From Escherichia phage KIT06: 64,000 nucleotides of DNA. Of this stretch, positions 1 through 56,007 are shown piece by piece. A program made the position numbers and the translations under genes. The number at the start of each line of letters is the position of its first letter. Within the stretch, counting starts at the first letter, position 1. The notes below the pieces were generated by a model. It was given only the letters and a program-made list of their open reading frames with translations. It had not been told where the DNA came from and ran no database searches. The stretch lies in the sequence record OQ349392.1. One strand, 5' to 3'.

Positions 1-25
1 AATCTGTTGATGAAGCAAAAGATGA

Positions 26-487
<462 letters not shown>

Positions 488-500
488 TTTCACAAAGTTG

Positions 501-529
501 TTTACACGCTGATGAGGTAGTGATACTAT
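501..529 (+). promoter_or_regulatory. T4-type early promoter (-35 TTTACA, 17-bp spacer, -10 TACTAT, TG-extended)
   Basis: GTTGTTTACA...TGATACTAT with A/T-rich TTTCACAAAG upstream element; precedes ipI. Confidence 0.7.
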
Positions 530-559
530 TATCTCATCAAAATTAATTAGGAAAATAAA

Positions 560-847
560 ATGAAAACTTTCAAAGAATTTACTTCTACAACTATCCCGGT
601 TTCTACTATTACTGAAGCTACTCTTACTTCTGAAGTTATTAAAGCAAATAAAGGACGAGAAGGTAAACCAATGATTAGTTTGGTTGATGGCGAAGAAATC
701 AAAGGTACTGTTTACCTAGGTGATGGGTGGTCTGCTAAAAAGGATGGTGCTACAATCATTATCTCTCCTGCTGAAGAAACTGCGTTGTTTAAAGCTAAAC
801 ACATTTCTGCGGCACATCTCAAGATTATTGCTAAAAATCTTTTGTAA
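560..847 (+). CDS. ipI: internal protein I (capsid-targeted; anti-type-IV-restriction IPI in T4)
   Basis: 95 aa; N-terminal MKTFKEF capsid-targeting-like sequence with I-T-E site at residue 19; C-terminus ...HISAAHLKIIAKNLL as recalled for T4 IPI. Confidence 0.6.
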   Translation: MKTFKEFTSTTIPVSTITEATLTSEVIKANKGREGKPMISLVDGEEIKGTVYLGDGWSAKKDGATIIISPAEETALFKAKHISAAHLKIIAKNLL

Positions 848-866
848 TAAATATTTCACAAAGTTG

Positions 867-895
867 TTTACATAGGGTTTTAGTTGTGATACTAT
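867..895 (+). promoter_or_regulatory. T4-type early promoter
   Basis: TTTACA-N17-TACTAT with upstream TTTCACAAAG element. Confidence 0.7.
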
Positions 896-923
896 TACCC
901 TATCAACTACTGAGGAGAATAAA

Positions 924-1196
924 ATGAAAACATTTAAAGAATTTATCAATGAAGCTACTTTTAACGAAAAAGTAAAAATTAGCAAAGCTGTCAAGACTAT
1001 GATTGATAACATCAATTACCTATATGGTATTGATTTAACTGACTATGTAACAGTTGGTAACAAACGTAACTATTTCGTGTTTGACATCTCTGAACTTGAC
1101 CAGAATCAAATTAACAACATTGAGCGTTTTGCTAATGATAAGGGTCTTCGTCATGAGTCAGCGGGTTATAAAAAATACGCAATTTATTTAAAATGA
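924..1196 (+). CDS. capsid-targeted internal-protein-like protein (CTS MKTFKEFINE)
   Basis: 90 aa; N-terminal 10 residues match the T4 internal-protein capsid-targeting sequence with I-x-E site; own early promoter and GAGGAGAATAAAATG leader. Confidence 0.55.
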   Translation: MKTFKEFINEATFNEKVKISKAVKTMIDNINYLYGIDLTDYVTVGNKRNYFVFDISELDQNQINNIERFANDKGLRHESAGYKKYAIYLK

Positions 1197-1197
1197 G

Positions 1198-1226
1198 TTT
1201 ACTTTTAAATAGGGTTGTGGTACTAT
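1198..1226 (+). promoter_or_regulatory. T4-type early promoter
   Basis: TTTACT-N17-TACTAT, TG-extended. Confidence 0.65.
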
Positions 1227-1256
1227 TACCTTATCAAAATTAATTAGGAAAATAAA

Positions 1257-1565
1257 ATGAAAACTTACCAAGAATTTATCAATGAAGCGGCTGCACCAAA
1301 GACATTCATTATTTATACTCAAGCGGGTCTTGATGATGAGTATGCGGAAGCAATTCTGAGGTCACTTGCTAAGAACGGCGTTGAAGTAATCGCCTCGGAC
1401 TTTAAGAAAGGGGCTTCCGAGCTGTTTATTTCTATAACTAAAGGATCTAAAGCTAAAATCAAATCATCATTCGGAGTTGCTCGTACCGATCAAATCGACA
1501 ATCATGACTTTAAACAAACTGGTGCTAAACGGCAGAACACAATTGCATCACGCGGAATAAAATAG
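1257..1565 (+). CDS. capsid-targeted internal-protein-like protein (CTS MKTYQEFINE)
   Basis: 102 aa; CTS-type N-terminus; preceded by AGGAAAATAAAATG leader identical to the one before ipI. Confidence 0.55.
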   Translation: MKTYQEFINEAAAPKTFIIYTQAGLDDEYAEAILRSLAKNGVEVIASDFKKGASELFISITKGSKAKIKSSFGVARTDQIDNHDFKQTGAKRQNTIASRGIK

Positions 1566-1576
1566 TTTATAAACCG

Positions 1577-1605
1577 TTTACTTTTAGATAGGGTAGTGAT
1601 ATTAT
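1577..1605 (+). promoter_or_regulatory. T4-type early promoter
   Basis: TTTACT-N17-TATTAT. Confidence 0.65.
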
Positions 1606-1633
1606 TACCCTATCAACTACTGAGGAGAATAAA

Positions 1634-1857
1634 ATGAAAACTTATCAAAAATTTATCGCTGAAGCTAAAAGACATGAAGATGAACTACCAATTGTTACGA
1701 AAACTTTTGATGGTACATTAAGTGATTTTAAAAAATTCCTAGCGATAAACTTTCTAAGTTAACTGGCTCTATTAGTGAAAAGGATGGTAAAGTCACGTTT
1801 TCTGCTCGTGGCACTGCTAATCTTAAAAAGCTTTTGAAAGCTGCTGGAGCGGAATAA
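1634..1857 (+). pseudogene. frameshifted CTS-type internal-protein gene
   Basis: ATG 1634 opens MKTYQKFIAEA... which stops at 1760-1762; the -1 frame continues from the A-run at 1730-1735 to a stop at 1855-1857 (…KLSKLTGSISEKDGKVTFSARGTANLKKLLKAAGAE). Confidence 0.5.
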
Positions 1858-1861
1858 GTTG

Positions 1862-1890
1862 TTTACTTCTGGGTAGTAGTGTGATACTAT
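1862..1890 (+). promoter_or_regulatory. T4-type early promoter
   Basis: TTTACT-N17-TACTAT followed by the conserved leader. Confidence 0.7.
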
Positions 1891-1918
1891 TACCCTATCA
1901 ACTACTGAGGAGAATAAA

Positions 1919-2104
1919 ATGAAACGTTGTGAATTAATTCGAAATGTTGCTATTGCAATTTCTGCTTCCGCTTTTAGTTTTTCAATGTTTGTTGGATTTA
2001 TATGCGGATTATTGACTACAGCAGAAAATGTTTTTTCACTTGTAGTAGCATTTTTAATTGGTTTAATCGCTATTGTTATGGATAAAATTTCTAAAGGTGA
2101 ATAA
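1919..2104 (+). CDS. small membrane protein (two predicted TM helices)
   Basis: 61-aa hydrophobic ORF directly after early promoter and GAGGAGAATAAAATG leader. Confidence 0.45.
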   Translation: MKRCELIRNVAIAISASAFSFSMFVGFICGLLTTAENVFSLVVAFLIGLIAIVMDKISKGE

Positions 2105-2509
2105 ATGAATATTAACGAATATTATGTTTATGCTGGGGATTATGCAAATCCTTCTCATTTTGAAGGTAATTTAATACCTGATAGAGTTTTTAATACTCCT
2201 TTTGAAGCGTGGAGTTGGGTTGAAAGTAAAAATGGATTTTCTTATCGTTATGTTGAAGTAACTGATTGGAAAGGAACTAAATATCCTAAAGAGCATTATT
2301 ATGTAGACCCATCTAAAGTAAATTTTCTTTTGTTCGCAGGCGATAATTACTATCCTTGCGGTGGATATGATGATTTGATTGCGTATGCTGAAACAGAAGA
2401 TGAATTACGCCAAATTATTGAAGACAATAAATCAAAACGATTTGGTGATAGTTTTGACTGGTGGCAAATCGTAAATGCCCATACACATACTATTGTTGAT
2501 AAAGGTTAA
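2105..2509 (+). CDS. hypothetical protein
   Basis: 134-aa ORF, ATGA overlap with upstream stop. Confidence 0.5.
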   Translation: MNINEYYVYAGDYANPSHFEGNLIPDRVFNTPFEAWSWVESKNGFSYRYVEVTDWKGTKYPKEHYYVDPSKVNFLLFAGDNYYPCGGYDDLIAYAETEDELRQIIEDNKSKRFGDSFDWWQIVNAHTHTIVDKG

Positions 2510-2511
2510 TA

Positions 2512-2802
2512 ATGATTCTTTATGCGAAAGTATCATCCATTGAAAATGGATATAAATATGATCAAGATGCGGCTAAAGCCTTGATTGATGATTATGGCAT
2601 TTTAACATGTTTTGAAGTTGAAAAGGTTTACATTGACCGTTCATCTTCTCAAGTTAAATTAGTGAAGGAAGACCGTAAATTTAATACAGTAAATTTTGAT
2701 TTCTTTATTGAAACAGAAAAAGGTCCTCTTGAATATGATATTTTCAAGAATCCTTTGGGTCTTGAATGTATTAAATATACTTACATTAATGCAGCGTGGT
2801 GA
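2512..2802 (+). CDS. hypothetical protein
   Basis: 96-aa ORF tightly packed with neighbours. Confidence 0.45.
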   Translation: MILYAKVSSIENGYKYDQDAAKALIDDYGILTCFEVEKVYIDRSSSQVKLVKEDRKFNTVNFDFFIETEKGPLEYDIFKNPLGLECIKYTYINAAW

Positions 2803-3320
2803 AAATGAATATTTGTTTGGGTACTACAATTCCGCAGGGTTACGTAATTGATGTCACTACCTGGGAAAATGATGGTGACAACTATAAAACCAAAACACTG
2901 TTTGGCGTAGAAGAGCATGAAATCTTACAATTCCAATATCTTTTAAAGAAGTTTAAAAGCCGACATTCTAGTACTAAAATTGAGCACTATTGTGGTAATG
3001 CTTCGTTCAGTGAGCAATCGCTTTTTATCTATGAATACTTGGTTGAAGGACTGTTCTCAGACCAACTTTATCCAGAATTCATTAAAAAGGTCTTTGATAT
3101 AGAAGTTGACCTTGGTAATAAATCTGAAGAAGATGAAGAACGTGTATTTGACTTATTCTTTGTGAATGGTAATAAAGTGCTTGAAGGACTTATTAATATT
3201 TTAGGTAATGCTTCTGAGTATTATGATTATGATTTTTTGCGTGTAGTTGAGAGTGTTAAATACTCTTATATAGAAGAAGAAATTGTTTTGCCGACCGTTA
3301 AAATGTTTAATTTGCTTTAA
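2796..3320 (+). CDS. hypothetical acidic protein
   Basis: 174-aa ORF overlapping upstream stop. Confidence 0.45.
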   Translation: MVKMNICLGTTIPQGYVIDVTTWENDGDNYKTKTLFGVEEHEILQFQYLLKKFKSRHSSTKIEHYCGNASFSEQSLFIYEYLVEGLFSDQLYPEFIKKVFDIEVDLGNKSEEDEERVFDLFFVNGNKVLEGLINILGNASEYYDYDFLRVVESVKYSYIEEEIVLPTVKMFNLL

Positions 3321-3406
3321 GAATTATTTGTTATTATTAACTCATATCGCATTGATTAATACCCTCTATCATCAAGGGTTCTTTCCTGAGAGCCTTTGTT
3401 AATAAT

Positions 3407-3479
3407 TGGGAATTAGCCAAGTTGGTAAGGCATAGCACTTTGACTGCTAGATGCAAAGGTTCGAGTCCTTTATTCCCAG
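3407..3479 (+). tRNA. tRNA-Gln (anticodon TTG)
   Basis: Cloverleaf folded by hand: acceptor TGGGAAT/ATTCCCA, anticodon stem TAGCA/TGCTA, loop CTTTGAC, T-loop GGTTCGAGTCC. Confidence 0.85.
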
Positions 3480-3480
3480 C

Positions 3481-3567
3481 GCGAGAATGGTCAAATTGGT
3501 AAAGGCACAGCACTTAAAATGCTGCGGAATGATTTCCTTGTGGGTTCGAGTCCCACTTCTCGCACCA
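3481..3567 (+). tRNA. tRNA-Leu (anticodon TAA)
   Basis: Acceptor GCGAGAA/TTCTCGC, loop CTTAAAA, long variable arm, encoded CCA. Confidence 0.85.
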
Positions 3568-3572
3568 AATTT

Positions 3573-3647
<75 letters not shown>

Positions 3648-3657
3648 ATTTAATTTA

Positions 3658-3731
3658 CTCCGTGTAGCTCAGTTTGGTAGAGCGTCTGCTTTGGGAGCAG
3701 AATGTCGCAGGTTCAAATCCTGCCGCGGAGA
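3658..3731 (+). tRNA. tRNA-Pro (anticodon TGG)
   Basis: Acceptor CTCCGTG/CGCGGAG, loop TTTGGGA, T-loop GGTTCAAATCC; no encoded CCA. Confidence 0.8.
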
Positions 3732-3733
3732 CT

Positions 3734-3823
3734 GGAGGCGTGGCAGAGTGGTTTAATGCACCGGTCTTGAAAACCGGCAGTCGCTCCGGCGACTCATAGG
3801 TTCAAATCCTATCGCCTCCGCCA
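3734..3823 (+). tRNA. tRNA-Ser (anticodon TGA)
   Basis: Acceptor GGAGGCG/CGCCTCC, loop CTTGAAA, long variable arm, encoded CCA. Confidence 0.85.
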
Positions 3824-3828
3824 GTTTT

Positions 3829-3904
3829 GCTGATTTAGCTCAGTAGGTAGAGCAACTCACTTGTAATGAGAAGGTCGGCGGTTCGATTCCGTCAATCAGC
3901 ACCA
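3829..3904 (+). tRNA. tRNA-Thr (anticodon TGT)
   Basis: Acceptor GCTGATT/AATCAGC, loop CTTGTAA, encoded CCA. Confidence 0.85.
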
Positions 3905-3905
3905 A

Positions 3906-3980
3906 GGCCCTGTAGCTGGAAGGTTCAAGCAAGCGACTCATAATCGCCAGATGGTGGTTCAATTCCACCCAGGGCCACCA
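3906..3980 (+). tRNA. tRNA with CAT anticodon (Ile via lysidine as in T4, or Met)
   Basis: Acceptor GGCCCTG/CAGGGCC, loop CTCATAA, encoded CCA; occupies the tRNA-Ile position of the T4 array. Confidence 0.75.
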
Positions 3981-3989
3981 AATTAATTT

Positions 3990-4076
3990 GGGGAGTTATC
4001 CCGTAGAGGTAGCGGTGTGGACTGTAAATCCATTGTCATTGCGACTCGGGTGGTTCGACTCCATCACTCCCCACCA
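3990..4076 (+). tRNA. tRNA-Tyr (anticodon GTA)
   Basis: Acceptor GGGGAGT/ACTCCCC, loop CTGTAAA, long variable arm, encoded CCA. Confidence 0.75.
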
Positions 4077-4080
4077 ATTT

Positions 4081-4155
4081 GGATGTGTAGCTCAATGGCA
4101 GAGCGATCGCCTGTTAAGCGATTGGTTATAGGTTCGAATCCTATCACGTCCGCCA
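4081..4155 (+). tRNA. tRNA-Asn (anticodon GTT)
   Basis: Acceptor GGATGTG/CACGTCC (one G-U), anticodon stem ATCGC/GCGAT, loop CTGTTAA, encoded CCA. Confidence 0.75.
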
Positions 4156-4159
4156 AATC

Positions 4160-4235
4160 CGAGGCATAGCTCAGAAGGAAGAGCAAGGACCTTCTAAGTC
4201 CTAGGTCGTAGGTTCGATCCCTATTGCCTCGACCA
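4160..4235 (+). tRNA. tRNA-Arg (anticodon TCT)
   Basis: Acceptor CGAGGCA/TGCCTCG, loop CTTCTAA, T-loop TTCGATC, encoded CCA. Confidence 0.8.
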
Positions 4236-4251
4236 ATTAAGTGAGGAAAAT

Positions 4252-4602
4252 ATGAAAGGTAATGTTTATTTAGTAGTTCATGGTTTAACATTCTATTTTA
4301 ATCACAATGACACTGTTATTTCTGAACGTGTAATTAATTTACTTTATCAGCATGCAGATTATGTTTATGTCGAAAACGAATACGGTCATTGGCAATTTCT
4401 CAAAAATCGTTCATTTGGTTTAGATGGTTACGAATACTTTGAACGTAAAGACCTTTTAGATAAAATTCCATTATCTACACAATATCAAAATCACAAGTCT
4501 TTATATAAATGCCGTCCAATTCGAAATGCTGAATCTGCGTATGAAGTAATTGATTTATGGCGTAAACGTCGTGGACAGGTTGATGCTTTAAAAGAATATT
4601 AA
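4252..4602 (+). CDS. hypothetical protein
   Basis: 116-aa ORF with GAGGAAAATATG ribosome-binding site directly after tRNA-Arg. Confidence 0.5.
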   Translation: MKGNVYLVVHGLTFYFNHNDTVISERVINLLYQHADYVYVENEYGHWQFLKNRSFGLDGYEYFERKDLLDKIPLSTQYQNHKSLYKCRPIRNAESAYEVIDLWRKRRGQVDALKEY

Positions 4603-8583: not shown

Positions 8584-9114
<531 letters not shown>

Positions 9115-9119
9115 AGTTG

Positions 9120-9148
9120 TTTACTTTCTCCTAGAACTGTGATAGTAT
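9120..9148 (+). promoter_or_regulatory. T4-type early promoter
   Basis: TTTACT-N17-TAGTAT overlapping the e stop; precedes ipII. Confidence 0.65.
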
Positions 9149-9185
9149 ATTCATAGTTACTAATTAAAATATTTAAAGGAACCAT

Positions 9186-9503
9186 ATGAAAACGTTTAAA
9201 GAATTTATTGCAGAATCTGCCCAAGGACAACGTGTAGAAGGCGGTTATATCTGGATTGAACAAGTTGAGCCGCCAAGTCGCACTTCTACAGGTAAATGGA
9301 AAATTACTGTTGATGGTCCTGGTGGTAAACGTAGGACTCTTAAAGAAATTAATGGGTACTATGAAGAAGCTCTTTCGGATGCAGGAACTTACATGATGCA
9401 AATCATGATTAAAAACCCTGAAAACCGTTTTGCAGCTAGAGTTTTCCGACGCATCGGTAATAAACTTTATGACGCATACTCTAAAAACTTCCCTAAAGAA
9501 TAA
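9186..9503 (+). CDS. ipII: internal protein II
   Basis: 105 aa with CTS MKTFKEFIAE. Confidence 0.8.
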   Translation: MKTFKEFIAESAQGQRVEGGYIWIEQVEPPSRTSTGKWKITVDGPGGKRRTLKEINGYYEEALSDAGTYMMQIMIKNPENRFAARVFRRIGNKLYDAYSKNFPKE

Positions 9504-9529
9504 CATGAATTAAAACAATAGGAACAAAA

Positions 9530-10108
9530 ATGAAAACGTATCAAGAATTTATTGCTGAAGCTTCTGTAGTAAAGGCCAAAGGCATTAATAAGGACGAGTG
9601 GAACTATCGTGGTGGAAACGGCTTTGACCCTAAAACAGCCCCTATTGAACGATACTTAGCTACAAAAGCTTCCGATTTTAAAGCTTTCGCTTGGGAAGGA
9701 CTTCGCTGGCGTACCGATTTAAATATTGAAGTTGACGGACTTAAATTTGGTCATATTCAAGATGTTGTTGCTAGTAACTTGGACGCAGCTTTTGTTAAAG
9801 CTGACGGTGACCTTCGTCGCTGGAATTTAAAACTATTCTCTAAACAGAAAGGCCCGGTGTTTGTGCCTAAAGCTGGTAAATGGGTTATTGATAATAAATT
9901 AGCTAAGGCTGTCAACTACGCTGGCCTTGAATTCGCCAAGCATAAATCATCATGGAAAGGTCTTGATGCAATGGCCTTCCGTAAAGAATTTGCTGATGTT
10001 ATGGCTAAAGGCGGCTTTAAGGCAGAAATAGATACCTCTAAAGGTACGTTTAAGGACGCTAATGTTCAGTACGCTTATGCCGTTGCTAATGCAGCCCGTG
10101 GTAATTAA
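9530..10108 (+). CDS. ipIII: internal protein III
   Basis: 192 aa with CTS MKTYQEFIAE. Confidence 0.85.
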   Translation: MKTYQEFIAEASVVKAKGINKDEWNYRGGNGFDPKTAPIERYLATKASDFKAFAWEGLRWRTDLNIEVDGLKFGHIQDVVASNLDAAFVKADGDLRRWNLKLFSKQKGPVFVPKAGKWVIDNKLAKAVNYAGLEFAKHKSSWKGLDAMAFRKEFADVMAKGGFKAEIDTSKGTFKDANVQYAYAVANAARGN

Positions 10109-19964: not shown

Positions 19965-19987
19965 GTTTAAATGACGTCACAAAGTTG

Positions 19988-20016
19988 TTTACAAGCATAA
20001 AGCTTTGTGGTACTAT
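19988..20016 (+). promoter_or_regulatory. T4-type early promoter
   Basis: TTTACA-N17-TACTAT. Confidence 0.7.
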
Positions 20017-20050
20017 ACAACTATCAACTGATGTGGATTTGGGGAATAAA

Positions 20051-20200
20051 ATGAAAACTACGTTAATTGAAGTAAAAAAGTTGATTGACACAGAAGAGAT
20101 TTCAGCTTATTTTGAAAATTTCTTAGAAGATGCAACTGAAGATAACGCGGTTTATCTCGCTCAGAAAATTATAGAAACATATTTGGAGCAGAATCAATGA
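20051..20200 (+). CDS. hypothetical small acidic protein (49 aa)
   Basis: ATG after GGGGAATAAA; upstream part of ORF 19886 overlaps the promoter. Confidence 0.45.
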   Translation: MKTTLIEVKKLIDTEEISAYFENFLEDATEDNAVYLAQKIIETYLEQNQ

Positions 20201-20460: not shown

Positions 20461-20464
20461 ATTG

Positions 20465-20493
20465 TTTACAGTAGGGTAGTAGTGTGATACTAT
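20465..20493 (+). promoter_or_regulatory. T4-type early promoter
   Basis: TTTACA-N17-TACTAT. Confidence 0.7.
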
Positions 20494-20529
20494 TACCCTA
20501 TCAAAACAAATGTGAAATTGGAGAATAAA

Positions 20530-21498
20530 ATGAAAACTGTAACTATCAATAAGGGTATCTACTTCGGTAAAGAAATCTCTGGAACTTTTGAGCTTTTAGG
20601 CGAATGGTTCCCAGATAATGCTCCGGTAGATGCACAAGGAGATGGTAAAGTTTTTGTTGAAATTGACGGTAAACGTCGCGGTGTTTGGGTTTACAAATCA
20701 GATATTTCATATGATGGTGTAAAAGTTGAAGAAGTTAAAGAATCATATGAAGATATGAAAACCCGCATTAATAAAAGATTTAATGTTATGGGAATGATGA
20801 CGAATGGTATTATTAACGGAAATATTCGTTCATTGATTATCTCTGGCGCAGCAGGTATTGGTAAAACGTATTCTTTAGATAAAGCTTTAAATAAAGCAAA
20901 TGATATTGGATACATTGAATATAAAAGCATTAATGGTAAAATCTCTGGTATTGGTCTTTATGAACAGCTTTGGAATAATCGTGAAGAGAATTCTGTCCTT
21001 TTGATTGATGATGTGGATGTTTTCTCTGATATGGACATTCTTAATCTTCTAAAAGCTGCTCTGGACACTGGAGAGACCCGTAAAGTCTGCTGGAGCACTG
21101 CATCTTCTTACTTAGAAGAAAAAGGCATTGACCGTGAGTTTGAATTTAAAGGAACGATTGTTTTTATCACAAACGTTGACATTGACCGCGAATTAGACCG
21201 TGGTACTAAACTTGCCCCACACTTACAAGCATTAGTGTCCCGCTCAGTTTATTTGGATTTGGGTGTTCACACTAATGAAGAAATTATGGTCAGGGTTGAA
21301 GATGTTATTCTTTCAACTGACATGATGCAAAAGCGCGGTCTTTCTGATGAAGAAACTTATAAAGCATTATCATGGATGAAAGTTAATGTTAATCGTTTAC
21401 GCAATGTTTCACTGCGTACTGCTCTTTATCTTGCTGACTTTATTATGACCGACAAAAACGGTTGGGAAGAAATTGCTGAGGTTACTCTTCTGAAATAA
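20530..21498 (+). CDS. AAA+ ATPase-like protein
   Basis: Walker A GAAGIGKT, Walker B LLIDDVD; ATG 20530 after GGAGAATAAA. Confidence 0.55.
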   Translation: MKTVTINKGIYFGKEISGTFELLGEWFPDNAPVDAQGDGKVFVEIDGKRRGVWVYKSDISYDGVKVEEVKESYEDMKTRINKRFNVMGMMTNGIINGNIRSLIISGAAGIGKTYSLDKALNKANDIGYIEYKSINGKISGIGLYEQLWNNREENSVLLIDDVDVFSDMDILNLLKAALDTGETRKVCWSTASSYLEEKGIDREFEFKGTIVFITNVDIDRELDRGTKLAPHLQALVSRSVYLDLGVHTNEEIMVRVEDVILSTDMMQKRGLSDEETYKALSWMKVNVNRLRNVSLRTALYLADFIMTDKNGWEEIAEVTLLK

Positions 21499-55842: not shown

Positions 55843-56007
55843 ATGAAAACGTTTAAAGAATTTATCAAAGAAGATATGGTCGCTGGAGATTCAGGTGGTA
55901 ATCCTGAAAATATCTCTACTGGAACAACGTCAGGCGCTGTAGTAAATAAAGGTCCTGAACAGATTCCTAAAAAGAAAAAAGAGGAATCTAAAGAAAAAGA
56001 AGAGTAA
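55843..56007 (+). CDS. small CTS-bearing protein (54 aa)
   Basis: Not in the track; MKTFKEFIKE N-terminus identical in type to internal-protein CTS; Lys/Glu-rich tail. Confidence 0.4.
   Translation: MKTFKEFIKEDMVAGDSGGNPENISTGTTSGAVVNKGPEQIPKKKKEESKEKEE

Follow-up and report, generated by a model that had tools for sequence, protein, structure and literature searches.

Which proteins are encoded by the run of short genes between gene 57B and the tRNA genes of Escherichia phage KIT06, and by which route did they come to lie there side by side? The stretch analyzed here (sequence record OQ349392.1; 64,000 nucleotides, referred to as the window throughout) starts with T4-like (Tequatrovirus) sequence at the end of gene 57A, and then carries 57B, an array of four genes, trna.4, trna.3, trna.2 and a tRNA cluster. 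T-even phages possess two loci for internal proteins (Ip), one between 57B and the tRNA genes and the other between e and denV, and the position of the array, with 57B on one side and trna.4 and the tRNA cluster on the other, is that of the former. Positions 488-1918 represent the 57B-proximal Ip locus of a Tequatrovirus, comprising ipI, ip9, ip7 and a frameshifted fourth Ip gene. That this locus consists of cassettes tagged with a capsid-targeting sequence (CTS), exchanged via repeated promoter-leader modules and encoding injected inhibitors, is in our judgement very probably correct as a whole. The array is a real but ordinary case of a well-known variable internal-protein locus, the anatomy and interpretation of which are already established.

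In T4, the CTS is formed by the first 10 residues, which resemble MKTYQEFIAE and bring proteins to the prohead core. Residues 4 and 7 are the targeting determinants (credited to Mullaney and Black, 1996, as summarised in PMC9026906), while residues 8 and 10 determine processing by the prohead protease gp21 (PMC9026906), the sites of which read I/L-x-E with a small residue after them. Four tandem plus-strand open reading frames (ORFs) are listed for window positions 560-1857. All of them open with MKT[F/Y][K/Q][E/K]F, so that positions 4 and 7 are aromatic throughout, and in all of them an I-x-E site followed by alanine is present, at residues 8-10 in three ORFs and at residues 17-19 in ipI (N-termini in Table 1). 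Beyond this shared start the bodies are mutually unrelated, with pairwise identities of 20-32% that mostly derive from the CTS. Each body nevertheless has homology to a named Ip family (PF11634 and PHROGs 7673, 2667 and 8765), and the phage-collection records amount to 290 for IpI, 182 for Ip9, 283 for Ip7 and 107 for the fourth family. The predicted mature forms are small and basic (64-92 residues, 7-10 kDa, isoelectric points of 8.9-9.7, 11-15 lysines plus arginines).

The first protein is 97.9% identical to T4 IpI. Residues 1-19 make up CTS and propeptide, cleavage is predicted after ITE19, and the mature IPI* (residues 20-95) corresponds to the Pfam PF11634 match (76 of 76 profile positions) as well as to the match with PDB 2JUB (E=1.6e-44, residues 20-95, the entire mature protein), in which the solved mature IPI* chain likewise begins at residue 20. 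Full-length similarity to PF11634 is a property of ipI only; Ip9, Ip7 and the fourth protein gave no match to this family. Ip9 is 87% identical to UniProt Q38376, the 'Ip9' of phage RB15, and its gene is collinear with the RB32 gene annotated as Ip9. Ip7 is 92% identical to T2 ip7 and its homologues bear the name 'Ip7 protein' in their source records. Both names reportedly date from work of Repoila and colleagues in 1994. A sequence-only reading of this DNA had proposed four consecutive genes with a T4-type CTS and unrelated bodies, and both points hold at 560, 924, 1257 and 1634. The same reading regarded the 90-aa and 102-aa bodies as novel, which is incorrect: they are Ip9 and Ip7, members of PHROG internal-head-protein families that are annotated in RB32, T2 and RB15.

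The fourth gene had also been suspected of being disrupted, and this is indeed the case. One A is missing from a run of seven (A6 at 1730-1735), and the resulting ORF 1634-1762 specifies a product of 42 aa. Phage EP01 has A7 and is otherwise identical across the gene; there, the reading frame yields 74 aa and stops at the equivalent of window position 1857, and the intact EP01 protein matches PHROG 8765 with E=1.4e-26. Since the EP01 copy is intact and identical save for one base, the lesion would be either a very recent pseudogenization or a homopolymer sequencing error. Programmed frameshifting was considered and rejected: EP01 and all other relatives carry the intact A7 allele, and nothing suggested a recoding signal.

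Table 1. Features of the KIT06 window and of loci compared with it (window numbering unless another stretch is named; a slash marks the predicted cleavage site)
Feature	Position	Strand	Description and matches
ipI	560-847	+	internal protein I, 95 aa; MKTFKEFTST...ITE/A; Pfam PF11634 IPI_T4, E=2e-53
ip9	924-1196	+	internal head protein Ip9, 90 aa; CTS MKTFKEFINE/A; PHROG 7673, E=3.6e-54
ip7	1257-1565	+	internal head protein Ip7, 102 aa; CTS MKTYQEFINE/A; PHROG 2667, E=6.7e-41
fourth Ip gene	1634-1857	+	74-aa 'internal virion protein' family; CTS MKTYQKFIAE/A; alignment with EP01 and UFV-AREG1
module M1	488-559	+	TTTCACAAAG; early promoter GTTTACA ... TGATACTAT; hairpin GATGAGGTA/TATCTCATC over -10; type A leader ending AGGAAAATAAAATG
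module M2	848-923	+	TTTCACAAAG; early promoter; hairpin ATAGGGT/ACCCTAT; type B leader ending GAGGAGAATAAAATG
module M3	1197-1256	+	early promoter GTTTACT ... TGGTACTAT; degenerate hairpin; type A leader; without TTTCACAAAG
module M4	1566-1633	+	early promoter GTTTACT ... TGATATTAT; hairpin GATAGGGTA/TACCCTATC; type B leader
module M5	1858-1918	+	early promoter; hairpin GGGTAGTAG/CTATTACCC; type B leader; upstream of trna.4
segments matching T4	1-929, 1856-2200		
segments matching T2	1-593, 1214-1639, 1854-2104		
segments matching RB32	20-593, 853-1639, 1881-2200		
gene 57B	32-487	+	Acb1 (anti-CBASS phosphodiesterase family); Pfam PF23474 Acb1, E=7.8e-60; conserved left flank
trna.4	1919-2104	+	predicted membrane protein, 61 aa, without CTS; PHROG 1692, E=6e-35; conserved right flank
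tRNA cluster	3407-4235		ten genes (Gln, Leu, Gly, Pro, Ser, Thr, Met/Ile-CAU, Tyr, Asn, Arg)
CTS protein, second Ip locus	9186-9503		105 aa; PHROG 3966, annotated 'unknown function'
IpIII-type protein, second Ip locus	9530-10108		192 aa; PHROG 5341
CTS-less Ip9 homologue, Seuratvirus KS_A3 (PP627278)	2492-2716 of compared stretch L041		
CTS-less Ip9 homologue, Kagunavirus SXAU_B4 (OQ696342)	2507-2725 of compared stretch L042		

Each of the four Ip genes, and trna.4 as well, is preceded by a module of its own (M1-M5 in Table 1). The promoter consists of GTTTAC, a spacer of 14-17 nt and TG(A/G)TA(C/T)TAT, and the leader ends with AGGA(A/G)AATAAAATG in front of each gene. Two leader types occur: type A (...AATTAATTAGGAAAATAAAATG) at ipI and ip7, and type B (...CAACTACTGAGGAGAATAAAATG) at ip9, the fourth gene and trna.4. 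Weak, AT-rich hairpins with a 3' arm reading TACCCTATC or TATCTCATC span the -10 region in every module except M3, with -5.4 kcal/mol and z -2.3 for M1 (folded as DNA), -7.0 and -2.7 for M2, -6.8 and -3.3 for M4, and -6.0 and -2.4 for M5; M3 has no significant hairpin (z +0.6). Between M1 and M4, two stem positions differ on both arms (GATGAGG/TCTCATC vs GATAGGG/CCCTATC) with pairing kept, as read from an alignment of five module sequences in all, in which the offset of the 5' arm differs between modules. The leader-plus-start pattern is matched eight times in the window where 0.05 matches are expected, and the promoter core GTGRTAYTATTAYCYYATCAA occurs six times where none is expected. No intrinsic terminators were found in 1-4500 and no MotA box in a scan of 1-2200.

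According to the sequence-only reading, near-identical modules of UP element, promoter and leader precede the Ip genes. Promoter and leader are found at each gene, but the putative UP element TTTCACAAAG resides only upstream of ipI (488) and ip9 (854) and is absent at the third and fourth genes. Nor are the modules a device peculiar to internal proteins. A regular-expression scan detected 15 promoters of the module type in the window, all of them on its plus strand; ten lie outside the Ip array, and trna.4 and other genes without CTS are among those served by these generic T4-type early promoters. Because the same promoter and leader precede such genes, the module is not specific to Ip genes. 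Two copies further downstream (19987-20053 and 20464-20533) are situated in front of early genes lacking a CTS, namely a short ORF starting with MKTTLIEV and a gene for a P-loop-like protein of 322-328 aa, and the core of the copy at 20464 is identical to that of M2 and M5 (GTGATACTATTACCCTATCAA). What is distinctive for the Ip array is how densely promoters are packed, with each gene having its own and all five falling within 1.4 kb, and a repeat that runs 30 nt into the coding sequence, i.e. through the CTS.

To map junctions, window 1-2200 was aligned in pairwise BLAST searches with the corresponding loci of T4, T2 and RB32. The T4 locus has the simple order 57B-ipI-trna.4. In the window, an insertion of 927 bp contributes the cassettes for Ip9, Ip7 and the fourth Ip, and the single intergenic module of T4 aligns to both M2 and M5, the left and right direct repeats that bound the insertion. 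A 43-bp direct repeat flanking Ip9 and Ip7 is recorded in the GenBank notes for RB32. All six internal breakpoints relative to T4, T2 and RB32 fall inside promoter-leader-CTS modules, which measure 60-110 nt each and together take up roughly one quarter of the 1.4-kb array. The CTS-coding part ends at 593, 929 and 1639 are located six bases into coding sequence, and 853, 1214, 1854/1856 and 1881 lie in promoters. Each gene can be described as a self-contained cassette made up of an early promoter, in most cases a weak hairpin, one of two leaders, a 30-nt CTS start and an unrelated body. Because the junctions lie in promoter-leader-CTS sequence that the cassettes have in common, gain, loss and exchange of cassettes likely proceed through homologous recombination from module to module. 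The suggestion that repeated modules permit swapping of cassettes is supported by these junctions, and the comparison across T-even genomes that had been proposed as a check showed cassettes to be present, absent or replaced relative to T4, T2 and RB32. Among 36 IMG/VR loci located via 57B, four GenBank loci and the window, the number of CTS ORFs per locus ranges from 0 to 4; their bodies belong to at least 17 families that are unrelated to one another and occur in many combinations. EP01, which is 99.5% identical to window positions 1-2117, and UFV-AREG1 carry the four genes in the same order, and in both the fourth gene is intact. The combination of IpI, Ip9, Ip7 and the 74-aa Ip is uncommon, with about 15 records having the fourth gene in this context.

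Turning to function, T4 DNA retains about 1000 molecules of internal protein, which are co-injected (PMC9026906; PMC3012670). If the T4 scheme applies, the CTS of each array protein would dock on the scaffolding core of the prohead, gp21 would cleave after I-x-E, and the small basic mature proteins would remain with the packaged DNA and be injected together with it. The enzyme inhibited by mature IPI* is the GmrSD of E. coli CT596, and two further GmrSD subtypes are the targets of T4 Ip2 and Ip3, without cross-protection (Silas et al., 2025; PMC12373910); all proteins of both Ip loci have been proposed to target GmrSD variants (PMC12373910). IPIII has been found active in the cytoplasm without its CTS (Srikant et al., 2022; PMC9391042). 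An anti-defence role of Ip-locus proteins is thus a published hypothesis (PMC3012670; PMC12373910). By analogy, IpI of the window would block a CT596-type GmrSD enzyme, and Ip9, Ip7 and, if made, the fourth protein may each neutralise a different first-response host nuclease, another type IV restriction enzyme of the GmrSD family being the most likely target on the same grounds.

The bodies of Ip9 and Ip7 offer some structural information. The AlphaFold2 model of Ip9 (mean predicted local distance difference test score, pLDDT, of 77) shows a helix-strand-strand-helix-strand-strand order, predictive of a small alpha/beta domain, and that of Ip7 (mean pLDDT 64) a ferredoxin/ACT-like core at about residues 15-72 followed by a basic, predicted-disordered tail (73-102). 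The best Foldseek matches were trehalose-6-phosphate phosphatase cap and SepF for Ip9 (E=0.095) and ACT/ferredoxin-like domains for Ip7 (E=0.02), all with template modelling (TM) scores <0.5; they were set aside as reflecting a generic small alpha/beta fold. Pfam hits for Ip9, Ip7 and the 74-aa Ip were sub-threshold noise alone (Tenui_NS4, E=0.045; KH_PNO1, E=0.086). The searches that had been recommended for the two allegedly novel bodies therefore led to the known Ip9 and Ip7 families at the sequence level, but gave no functional lead at the level of structure. A literature search for virion proteomics of Ip7 and Ip9 returned nothing usable.

Ip9 occurs in a second setting. Homologues about 50% identical to its body (approximately residues 19-90) are encoded by siphoviruses, where the proteins start at the body and do without a CTS. 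Approximately ten Kagunavirus-type records of 43-45 kb and one Seuratvirus belong here, as opposed to about 160 T4-like records with the CTS. The existence of such CTS-less homologues shows the CTS to be a portable graft on a free-standing accessory protein. To our knowledge, these siphoviruses do not have DNA with glucosylated hydroxymethylcytosine (glc-hmC).

Different accounts can be given of how the array arose. The modules might be no more than convergent copies of a strong early-promoter and ribosome-binding-site consensus without any role in the exchange of cassettes, the variation at the locus having been brought about by illegitimate recombination or other means. The ten promoters of this type beyond the Ip array and the identity of the 20464 core with M2 and M5 are in keeping with such an origin, but it leaves the position of six of six internal breakpoints within a quarter of the array without a reason, and the alignment of a single T4 module to both M2 and M5 is the signature of unequal homologous exchange; the direct repeat recorded around Ip9 and Ip7 in RB32 also counts against it, and we give this account very little credence. 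It could also be argued that the array is in part decaying baggage, i.e. that cassettes acquired by recombination are not under selection in this lineage and that the frameshift is the first visible sign thereof. Ip genes are non-essential, loci with no or a single Ip are common, and a single-base deletion does cut the fourth protein to 42 aa. On the other hand, ipI, ip9 and ip7 are intact, each with promoter, ribosome-binding site, CTS and cleavage site, and the fourth gene is undamaged in the close relative EP01, which differs by that one base. Decay of this kind strikes us as rather improbable, and exchange of cassettes by recombination between modules is retained as the likely history.

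As to what the proteins do, the additional Ips might be generic basic counter-ions or aids to DNA packaging or ejection, interchangeable through charge and CTS and not specific effectors. Every mature form is basic, Ip7 has a disordered tail rich in lysine and arginine, and lysines of T4 internal proteins touch DNA phosphates (PMC3012670). However, the bodies are folded and family-conserved (78-97% identity among homologues) and not low-complexity basic peptides, three of three T4 Ips have specific GmrSD targets without cross-protection (PMC12373910), IPIII functions in the cytoplasm when deprived of its CTS (PMC9391042), and the siphoviruses retain the Ip9 body where no CTS is present. A counter-ion role is accordingly improbable. 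It is also conceivable, though in our view unlikely, that Ip9, Ip7 and the intact 74-aa Ip act, once injected, against host defences that are not glc-hmC-specific GmrSD enzymes; the hint is the free-standing Ip9 body of the siphoviruses. In that case, T4-like phages would have recombined an existing cytoplasmic anti-defence protein behind a module, and an early-expressed inhibitor would have become a pre-delivered one. Several observations weigh against the favoured explanation of module-exchanged cassettes for injected GmrSD inhibitors. The CTS-less siphovirus homologues hint that the target of Ip9 is not strictly glc-hmC-specific. Foldseek searches of the PDB with the Ip9 and Ip7 models gave no match below E=0.02. 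The fourth gene is broken, so that at most three functional Ips stem from the array in the genome as sequenced. The module is the phage's general early promoter and leader, present in 15 copies, and its likeness from gene to gene is therefore due in part to the consensus of a promoter and does not by itself prove that the modules are a device for recombination. Finally, the T4 late promoter TATAAATA is absent from 480-1920 (none in a scan of 1-2200). Protein supply must therefore come from early synthesis or from read-through originating upstream of the window, and the supply at the time of head assembly is left unexplained by the array sequence alone.

Some other genes of the window encode proteins with a CTS. 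The lysozyme gene e (8621-9115) is directly followed by a second Ip locus (9116-10108), in which a single early promoter (GTTTACTTTC...TGATAGTAT) precedes the genes for a 105-aa CTS protein and an IpIII-type protein. Late-promoter motifs TATAAATA are located at 8586 and 8599, upstream of e. Far from both Ip loci, gene 61.1 (54 aa, 55843-56007), just upstream of the primase gene 61, starts with MKTFKEFIKE/D, a near-perfect CTS with an I-x-E site, while the remainder is acidic and of low complexity (pI 5.0). Members of this family are present in 1232 phage records, and one T6 record uses the term 'putative head morphogenesis protein'; a literature search for gp61.1 as a CTS protein yielded no paper.

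With regard to the flanks, 57B carries this designation in T2 and RB32 and is elsewhere commonly labelled 'RNA ligase' or 'hypothetical'. It matches Acb1, and the Ip array therefore directly adjoins another anti-defence gene. On the right side, the trna.3/trna.2/downstream ORF segment (2105-3320) is likewise variable between phages: EP01 lacks window ~2118-2499 (trna.3), T2 is also devoid of trna.3, and window ~2779-3300 (an ORF of 170-174 aa) is absent from EP01 and UFV-AREG1 and present in RB32 and T2. The tRNA cluster contains no gene for the homing endonuclease SegB, while the clusters of T4 and RB32 carry one.

The system underlying the comparison with IpI, T4 IPI* and GmrSD, is said to have been described by Bair, Rifat and Black in 2007 and by Rifat et al. 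in 2008 (PDB 2JUB). Ip9, Ip7 and the 74-aa Ip share delivery signal and locus with the proven inhibitors IPI*, Ip2 and Ip3 (PMC12373910), and have neither sequence nor detectable fold similarity to IPI*. The closest counterparts of the array are the polymorphic Ip loci of T-even phages (Repoila, Tetart, Bouet and Krisch, 1994, EMBO J 13:4181), with Ip5, Ip7 and Ip9 of T2, T6, RB15, K3 and RB32. These are found at the same position between 57B and trna.4/tRNA genes and have the same CTS, Ip9 and Ip7 proteins that are 87-89% and 92-93% identical, promoter/stem-loop repeats between the genes and a combinatorial presence or absence of cassettes. The difference lies only in the four-gene combination, which already exists in EP01 and UFV-AREG1, and in the 1-nt frameshift of the window. 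More than 30 IP variants are known and the IP loci are polymorphic (Arbiol et al., 2010; PMC2839356). As reported in PMC2839356, Repoila et al. (1994) saw sequences resembling promoter-early stem-loop (PeSL) elements, promoters combined with stem-loops, at the two highly variable IP loci, and the T-even Ip elements are classified there as analogues and not homologues of PeSLs on account of T4 early promoters and weaker, AT-rich stems. Locus polymorphism, repeats and the idea of diverse injected anti-restriction proteins have thus all been published (Repoila et al., 1994; Rao and Black, 2010; Arbiol et al., 2010; Silas et al., 2025).

The PeSL cassettes of RB49 and phi1 (PMC2839356; Comeau et al., 2014, PMC4122927) resemble the KIT06 modules in that an early promoter overlapped by a stem-loop recurs between small accessory genes, and the modules of the window, too, mark the boundaries of insertion, deletion and replacement relative to T4, T2 and RB32. 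They differ in that the window promoters are of the T4 type (GTTTAC/TACTAT) and not of sigma70 consensus, and in that the stems are short, AT-rich and variable, with one of five degenerate, where those of PeSLs are GC-rich (polyG/polyC). Phage P1 packages its protective Dar proteins into the head and co-injects them with DNA, and anti-CRISPR and anti-defence hotspots assemble variable small inhibitor genes in clusters. The proteins and the packaging are unrelated in these cases, and neither an N-terminal CTS nor processing by gp21 is known to be involved.

The established picture, then, is one of T-even phages with two hotspots for CTS-tagged, injected, unrelated small proteins that are shuffled via repeated promoter elements. 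To this picture the occurrence of the Ip9 body without a CTS in siphoviruses adds one small, mildly new point, a concrete handle on how injected effectors are recruited. In KIT06, as in EP01 and UFV-AREG1, Ip9, Ip7 and the 74-aa Ip are encoded side by side and next to IpI and acb1, which makes these phages convenient for target screens of the kind carried out for Ip2 and Ip3.

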